Of a DNA stretch of 16,951 nt, positions 16,527 to 16,951 are shown one piece after another. A program made the position numbers and the translations under genes. The first letter of the stretch is position 1, and each line of letters opens with the position of its first letter. The DNA lies in assembly GCA_038858525.1 (NCBI GenBank), contig JAWCFL010000035.1, forward strand, positions 1-16,951. The letters run 5' to 3'. The notes beneath the pieces were generated by a model that saw only the letters and a list, made by a program, of their open reading frames with translations, made no database searches and was not told the origin of the DNA. Source of the DNA: Candidatus Jordarchaeales archaeon. GTDB taxonomy: Archaea; Asgardarchaeota; Jordiarchaeia; Jordiarchaeales; Freyrarchaeaceae.

Positions 16527-16645
16527 ACGTTGTTCCAAAGCAGGACTCACCGTTGTCGGATAGTTAACTTTTTATCACTATCCGTTCCACCTCGGCTAAA
16601 GCCTCATGGGTGGCTTTCGCCGCCAACGGTAAAGGACGGCACATC
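16527..16645 (-). ncRNA. Predicted TnpB omegaRNA (right-end RNA): scaffold about 16645-16547, guide about 16546-16527
   Basis: Nested inverted repeats: ACCGTTG 16549-16555 / CAACGGT 16624-16630; CGGATAGT 16557-16564 / ACTATCCG 16577-16584; CCACC 16587-16591 / GGTGG 16609-16613; GGCT 16594-16597 / AGCC 16600-16603. Overlaps the tnpB 3' end, as expected for omegaRNAs. Boundaries are approximate. Confidence 0.65.
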
Positions 16646-16951
16646 AAGAGCCTCATGGCGATGTTCCAAGCGGCGACAAAGTGTCTGTCCGCTTGAAAGC
16701 CGCACCACTTACACTTGAAGACATGCCCATTCGGCTTACTAATTTCGCCACACATCGGGCACGTCCTGGAAGTGTTCTTAGCGTCAACTATTTCAGGATT
16801 AAAGCCCAGCTCCATCGACTTATAAGAAATGTAAAGCTGGATTCTCCTGAATGGCATGCTGTGGAGCCTCCTATTCATCACCCTACCATACCGTATCCTC
16901 TCCCTTATGTGGGTGAGCTCCTCCATTACAGGCTTAACGTTTTCCTCGGCA
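16547..16951 (-). mobile_element. Right end of an IS200/IS605-derived element (or a domesticated remnant)
   Basis: tnpB 3' half plus structured right end. Left end and tnpA are not in the window, so mobility cannot be assessed. Confidence 0.6.
16564..16951 (-). CDS. tnpB: IS200/IS605-family TnpB, C-terminal part (runs off the window)
   Basis: Frame is open to the window edge (AEENVKPVMEELTHIR, RuvC-II). Contains LHSMPFRRIQLYISYKS, NTSRTCPMC..FKCKWC zinc ribbon and ADRHFVAAWNI (RuvC-III region). Confidence 0.93.
   Translation of the reverse strand, partial: AEENVKPVMEELTHIRERIRYGRVMNRRLHSMPFRRIQLYISYKSMELGFNPEIVDAKNTSRTCPMCGEISKPNGHVFKCKWCGFQADRHFVAAWNIAMRLLMCRPLPLAAKATHEALAEVERIVIKS

Follow-up and report, generated by a model that had tools for sequence, protein, structure and literature searches.

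A RuvC-III histidine TnpB on a multi-copy IS607-family insertion sequence of a Jordarchaeales-like archaeon

Described systems closest to the locus

The census of Altae-Tran et al. (2023, PNAS; PMC10691335) distinguishes six large TnpB branches with an altered RuvC-III, and it counts these rearranged branches as TnpBs. In the largest of them, RIIIr-4, the RuvC-III Asp is replaced by His, the zinc finger is lacking and there is a partial link to RHH/MazE genes; the catalogued Asp-to-His branches also include archaeal ones associated with serine recombinases. The rearranged branches Ser-6, MazE and RIIIr-6 are almost exclusively archaeal, and their authors deduced from conservation that activity is probably retained.

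The stretch of DNA analysed here (the window, 16,951 nucleotides) is the entire contig C35 of an assembly (G000; 2.09 Mb, 63 contigs, 92.7% complete) from a Jordarchaeales-like (Asgard) archaeon, and it ends inside a tnpB gene. The TnpB family to which this gene belongs resembles RIIIr-4 and the archaeal Ser-6, RIIIr-6 and MazE branches in having His for the RuvC-III Asp, in keeping the RuvC-I Asp and the RuvC-II Glu, and in its archaeal hosts. Unlike RIIIr-4, it retains a C4 zinc ribbon and is paired with an IS607 serine recombinase. Judged by these sequence features, the family is not RIIIr-4 and is probably another of the six RuvC-III-altered branches.

Among solved proteins, AsCas12f (8J12/8DZJ) and ISDra2 TnpB (8H1J/8EXA) are the closest both as folds and as PDB sequence matches, and they are alike in domain order and zinc ribbon. 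An AF2 model (pLDDT 83.9, pTM 0.73) has the TnpB/Cas12f fold, with a TM in Foldseek of 0.67 against full-length AsCas12f, 0.55 against ISDra2 TnpB and 0.53 against ISFba1 TnpB; Fanzor2 is also among the top Foldseek matches, listed after AsCas12f. At RuvC-III, AsCas12f and ISDra2 TnpB have NAD/DRD, whereas the His family has DRH, and Cas12f is CRISPR-associated and dimeric, whereas the His-type protein is carried by an insertion sequence.

Bacterial IS607 TnpBs with a RAGATH-18-derived reRNA (ISFba1, Ren et al. 2024, PMC11061315; ISXfa1) share with the present element the arrangement of a serine-recombinase tnpA, a tnpB and a guide RNA over the tnpB 3' end, as well as a GG-containing end, a pseudoknotted RNA and a tnpA that is often a pseudogene. 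ISFba1 TnpB has the canonical D194/E290/D371 triad and proven cleavage (PMC11061315). The window family differs from it in the RuvC-III His, in a scaffold that has no Rfam match and in a protein that is not detectably close in sequence, the ISFba1 TnpB entry 8IAZ not being among the HMM matches of our homologue profile to solved structures. TldRs (Wiegand et al., PMC10705468) are, for their part, TnpB-derived proteins with a substituted RuvC catalytic residue, as found in the window family. Unlike TldRs, the window family is multi-copy and transposon-borne, with variable guides predicted to derive from the flanks and with its other catalytic residues invariant.

A multi-copy IS607-family insertion sequence

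The minus-strand frame at the end of the window is uninterrupted up to the window's last bases, with the translation ...VKPVMEELTHIR...TSRTCPMCGEISKPNGHVFKCKWCGFQADRHFVAAWNIAMRLL...ERIVIKS*; the final 387 bases (minus strand) read AEENVKPVMEELTHIR...NTSRTCPMCGEISKPNGHVFKCKWCGFQADRHFVAAWNIAMRLLMCRPLPLAAKATHEALAEVERIVIKS*. PF07282 (Cas12f1-like TNB) matches this fragment with an E value of 3.8e-16 in a Pfam search. An initial annotation, made from the letters of the window alone, had reported a retained RuvC-II Glu (VMEEL), four zinc cysteines and an open frame, and all of these are present in the 128 codons of the window. The missing 5' part of the gene is due to an assembly break inside a repeat and is not a biological truncation. 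Features of the window copy are collected in Table 1. An antisense ORF of 90 aa over the tnpB 3' region (window 16681-16950, plus strand) was also considered and was set aside as a chance frame, stops occurring in 19/20 homologous loci; the same antisense frame measures 115-116 aa in C6, another contig of the genome, and in the foreign locus L015.

Table 1. Coordinates of tnpB, insertion sequence and predicted guide RNA features in the window
Feature	Position	Strand	Basis
3' part of tnpB (last 128 codons; stop 16564-16566)	16564..16950	-	ORF list and Pfam PF07282
RuvC-II catalytic Glu codon (first E of VMEEL; E274 in full-length paralogue)	16921..16923	-	invariant column, two alignments
C4 zinc ribbon CPMC ... 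CKWC, complete in window copy	16702..16761	-	translation
RuvC-III motif D-R-H (His 16681-16683; Asp two residues earlier, 16687-16689)	16681..16689	-	HMM alignment to Cas12f chains 9nzq, 8j3r
IS right end, ...GACAACGG(T)/flank	16549..16550	-	homology to other copies ends; blastn and alignment of 14 right ends
Predicted minimal omegaRNA/reRNA scaffold	16549..16641	-	covariation, alignment of 23 loci
Scaffold stem 1	16618-16641	-	covariation; found independently by RNAalifold
Scaffold small hairpin		-	covariation
Scaffold terminal hairpin, over stop codon	16557-16584	-	covariation
Pseudoknot, stem-1 loop ACCGUU with terminal AACGGU (contains GG core)	16625-16630 with 16549-16554	-	covariation
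Predicted guide segment (flank DNA 3' of scaffold)	16528..16548	-	in spacer past ABC ATPase gene end 16511

The last ~400 nt of the window recur at ten other places in the genome, most of them at contig ends, with 81-92% identity (blastn), and shorter or more diverged matches are found at several further places. With the one fully assembled copy (C6:44662->42806, 1,857 bp) as the query, blastn picked up some 14 left and some 14 right ends, their nucleotide identities lying between 85% and 95%. Both boundaries are sharp: on the left, flank/GGGTTTGCAG... (also written flank/GGGTTTGCAGCAGTTCCTGAATAG...), and on the right, ...GGATAGTTATAAAAAGTTAACTATCCGACAACGG(T)/flank. The 14 left ends begin with GGG and the 14 right ends finish in ...CAACGG(T), so that a short GG core is found at both ends, with no terminal inverted repeats and with unrelated flanks. 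Given 14 different flanks, it is very unlikely that the copies are assembly duplicates of a single locus.

Directly upstream of tnpB lies tnpA, which encodes a MerR-type HTH (N-terminal) fused to a serine-recombinase domain and forms a single unbroken tblastn match in 13/32 homologous loci of other genomes. An intact orthologue, the TnpA of L015, scores 224.7 bits against the IS607 transposase equivalog NF033518 (cut-off 110) and also matches PF00239 (Resolvase) and a MerR HTH. The full-length TnpB paralogue P0001 (391 aa) scores 116.8 bits against the NCBIfam model NF040570, guided_TnpB (cut-off 100), in a match that covers its residues 12-361 and profile positions 2-387/389. A Y1 (IS200/IS605) transposase was looked for as well, and PF01797 is absent from this 92.7% complete genome. 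The element is therefore an IS607-family insertion sequence, as TnpA and TnpB both clear their profiles and no Y1 transposase was found. As for a TAM, the left flanks of the 14 in-genome copies and of 13 foreign copies yielded no motif, and they have a weak T/A preference at position -1 before GGG.

The family is partly decaying in this genome. The tnpB gene is broken in five assembled pieces (C7, C9, C12, C27 and C40) and open in most others, and tnpA is broken, mostly by frameshifts, in most copies of which enough has been assembled. Such decay is common for IS607, 30% of TnpAs being pseudogenes (PMC11061315). One sub-lineage (C6:42825-43205, C29:277-654, C7:1174-1497 and C12:7126-7467, also found as protein cluster P0002) is without the first zinc-ribbon Cys, which was lost by a 3-nt deletion (TSRTCPMCG to TSRTS-MCG), the frame being otherwise open in C6 and C29. 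This loss may hint that the zinc ribbon is dispensable, or that those copies are on their way out.

The RuvC-III histidine

When a profile of 30 homologues is aligned with solved Cas12f chains, the segment 'adrhlvaawni' falls on 'ANADFNASQNI' / 'ANADYNAARNI'. By this alignment, the catalytic RuvC-III Asp has its counterpart in the His and the usual Asn in the Val, which bears out the replacement of both residues that had been read from the window. The window copy has ADRHFVAAWNI, and all paralogues in the genome have ADRH[F/L]VAAWNI; the RuvC-I motif GIDVNE is found in every paralogue with that region assembled (C6, C39, C45, C29 and C54).

Conservation of the His extends well beyond this genome. 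A database search gave 209 homologues with identities down to 58%, the closest of which (88-94% identity) are labelled Candidatus Jordarchaeales, while others come from Bathyarchaeia, Nitrososphaeria, Methanomethylicia, Korarchaeum cryptofilum, Culexarchaeum and Odinarchaeota. The motif can be read in 106 of the 121 sequences retrieved, and every one of these 106 has the His (106/106); the Asp two residues upstream is found in 102/106 and so is not strictly invariant. The His is likewise kept in every readable tnpB of 32 homologous loci from other genomes. Across the aligned homologues D185 (RuvC-I) and E274 (RuvC-II) are invariant, as are two of the zinc Cys columns, the other two being at least 90% conserved. 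The catalytic site of the family appears to consist of D185, E274 and H353 rather than of the canonical D-E-D triad. Among nine paralogues of the genome, compared over the 128 C-terminal codons, dN/dS is 0.156 at a dS of 0.34, indicating purifying selection.

Because every copy in the genome and 106/106 homologues carry the His, it is neither a chance nor a private mutation; the exchange is the fixed signature of the whole TnpB family. There is next to no probability that the His arose as a lesion in a pseudogene copy undergoing decay. The frameshifted tnpB paralogues and the mostly broken tnpA copies described above would fit such a reading, but the His is shared by homologues of many phyla, including loci with tnpA and tnpB both intact, the window's own 128 codons are open, dN/dS is low, and no Asp was found at the His position in the closest intact relatives. 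The suggestion of early decay, as far as the His itself is concerned, is thus excluded by its invariance and by the purifying selection. On these comparisons, the family is a long-lived, horizontally spread and autonomous insertion sequence, with purifying selection acting on its TnpB and the His fixed.

The homologue alignments, compared with a DRD-retaining sister TnpB, revealed no relocated acidic residue peculiar to the His clade. The invariant Glu of GIDVNE was a candidate for a compensatory acidic residue and was rejected, as the sister (C3:90590-91744) also has DINE. This sister TnpB, encoded outside the window at C3:90590-91766 of the same genome, has a canonical DRD (GYENDRDIIACLN), and over its C-terminal 122 residues it has 44% identity with the window fragment. 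Its last ~75 nt and those of the His family are 89% alike, including the terminal hairpin and the ...CGACAACGG right end, and no tnpA was seen upstream of it. This suggests that the guide-RNA/right-end modules of the DRD and His TnpB families are of common descent, or that this module was exchanged between the two.

Guide RNA, landing site and proposed function

The predicted guide RNA is structured: its scaffold lies over the 3' end of tnpB (the final ~100 nt of the gene) and runs up to the transposon right end, where it stops at the GG crossover core. In an alignment of 23 loci, the four-helix model (Table 1) has 90.2% of cells paired, versus 29-49% when the partners are shifted by 1-3 columns; in 12 pairs both members have changed, and 0/500 shuffles reach the observed values. 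In locus L030 the pseudoknot contains a compensatory C-G. The pairing is also visible in the protein, the tails MCRPLPLAAKA and MWGALPLPPKA alternating because GCCG...CGGC is swapped with GGGG...CCCC in the RNA; a second alternation is found between ...EVERIVIKC* and ...IEVRGKG*. At the 3' end of tnpB, the DNA is under tighter constraint than the protein, and residues 368-382, a tail that is modelled with low confidence, coincide with this region of 'translated RNA'. An Rfam scan of 16400-16951 found neither RAGATH-18 nor another relevant family, the one match being a chance one to Xist (E 0.68).

Further upstream, the KPNG codons at window 16727-16737 (minus strand; AAGCCGAATGG) are invariant, third positions included, in the 23 loci, the proteins of which are 58-94% identical. 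This suggests an additional constraint at the RNA level upstream of the scaffold, possibly from the 5' part of the guide RNA.

No two of the 14 right flanks are alike, and the predicted guides are accordingly derived from the flanks and variable. For the 22-mer predicted guide of the window copy, no second match beyond chance was found in the genome. Two other copies do have a second match in the same genome: the predicted guide at C29:673-693 matches C15:43593-43610 over 18/18 nt, and the one at C7:1516-1536 matches C40:7656-7676 over about 20/21 nt. Such matches may reflect duplication of the flanks, variation between strains or genuine second targets.

The window copy itself spans two contigs, its first ~304 nt having been assembled on C16 and its last ~403 nt on C35, and no contig covers the stretch between them, to which RuvC-I belongs. 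The tnpA of this copy appears to end after the HTH (C16). The copy lies 38 nt downstream of the stop codon of an ABC-transporter ATPase gene, in convergent orientation, and on the other side the convergent neighbour gene (C16:311-1802) abuts the left end at C16:304. In three related genomes (G003, with 85% identity, G002 and G004) the ABC-ATPase gene is directly followed by the conserved convergent gene with no element in between, which is the empty site of an insertion polymorphism. The ABC-transporter genes at window 12534-16511 (plus strand) are three, coding for proteins of 614 aa (with a C-terminal ATPase), 387 aa (a permease) and 325 aa (an ATPase); together with the convergent neighbour they are conserved in related genomes, and the insertion interrupts none of the three. 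A same-genus genome (L049, G001:C126, ~2715-2990) has a different insert of ~250 nt between the ABC ATPase gene and the convergent neighbour. This insert, at the start of which is an IS607-like right end of the same orientation (AACCGTTGTCGAGTAGG, the reverse complement of ...CCTACTCGACAACGGTT), may be a mini-element devoid of genes that sits at almost the same site.

The position beside transporter genes bears on the reading put forward in the initial annotation, that of an archaeal nuclease-dead regulator resembling TldRs, i.e. a single-copy, immobilised repressor with a fixed guide to the promoter of the neighbouring ABC-transporter genes. Linkage to genes for ABC-type transporters is described for some bacterial TldRs (DppD-TnpB; PMC10691335), and the closeness and convergent orientation of the two genes in the window speak in the same direction. 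A domesticated locus would be expected to lack transposon ends and a transposase, but about 14 dispersed copies with different flanks, sharp IS ends and a transposase gene of their own were found here. The would-be guide matches its own flank alone, the three relatives have the same ABC locus without the element, and neither a conserved syntenic position nor a guide complementary to a nearby promoter was seen. Such a repressor is highly improbable, being refuted by the copy number and the empty sites, and the ABC-transporter neighbourhood is no more than the landing site. The same annotation had named multiple dispersed copies, flank-derived guides and frameshifts as signs of an ordinary mobile or decaying element, and all three are present.

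We hold with good confidence that the window carries the right end of one copy of a multi-copy IS607 element of a Jordarchaeales-like (Asgard) archaeon, and that the TnpB of this element is probably a working RNA-guided enzyme with a D-E-H site. The 1.86-kb element carries a tnpA for a MerR-HTH serine recombinase, a tnpB of 391 aa and the guide-RNA scaffold, and the window copy has inserted into the spacer between the ABC-transporter ATPase gene and its convergent neighbour. The ribonucleoprotein with its flank-derived guide would recognise the rejoined empty donor site, and a cut at that site would lead to retention of the transposon, by analogy with canonical TnpBs, for which homing and retention by donor-site cleavage have been shown. 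In the D-E-H site, His would stand in for Asp as general base or as a ligand of the metal, as it does in other nucleases with the RNase H fold.

The His-type TnpB is probably an active, rearranged RNA-guided nuclease, because a dead site would let the remaining catalytic residues drift, and they do not. This option had been listed in the initial annotation too; it fits the data and matches the rearranged branches of Altae-Tran et al. 2023 (PMC10691335). A related precedent comes from Nety et al., who tested 59 orthologues: a TnpB with a rearranged RuvC-II cleaves DNA, and it is the only rearranged member reported active (PMC10278001).

It is unlikely that the family is instead nuclease-dead throughout and yet transposon-borne, its TnpB binding under RNA guidance without cutting, for example to mark donor or target for the serine recombinase, or to repress or stall at the empty site. 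Two active-site positions differ, the catalytic Asp and the neighbouring Asn both being replaced, our literature search found no published cleavage assay of a RuvC-III His-type TnpB, and some of the orthologues of Nety et al. process omegaRNA and give no signal in the TAM cleavage screen (PMC10278001). Set against this, known dead derivatives of TnpB are immobilised and losing catalytic residues (PMC10691335), whereas the His family is mobile. Its RuvC-I Asp, RuvC-II Glu and His are invariant in more than 100 sequences, down to 58% identity. His is also a frequent catalytic or metal-binding residue in nucleases with the RNase H fold, such as the RuvC domain of Cas9 (H983) and Argonaute (DEDH). 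It is quite unlikely, too, that the D-E-H TnpBs with a zinc finger, borne by IS607 elements of thermophilic archaea, are other than ordinary double-strand cutters, acting as nucleases dependent on Mn2+ or heat, as nickases or purely as RNA-guided binders, and would aid serine-recombinase transposition by a route other than homing by cleavage.

As TnpBs with Asp-to-His at RuvC-III have already been described, the window family is one more member of this set and an ordinary mobile element. It is a well-defined, widespread and thermophilic set of compact TnpBs (~390 aa) in which the D-E-H site is natural, the zinc ribbon is intact and the predicted guide-RNA scaffold is clearly bounded. Where a substitution is found throughout a clade and the gene belongs to a multi-copy transposon, the loss of the catalytic Asp from a fragment of TnpB does not testify to domestication.
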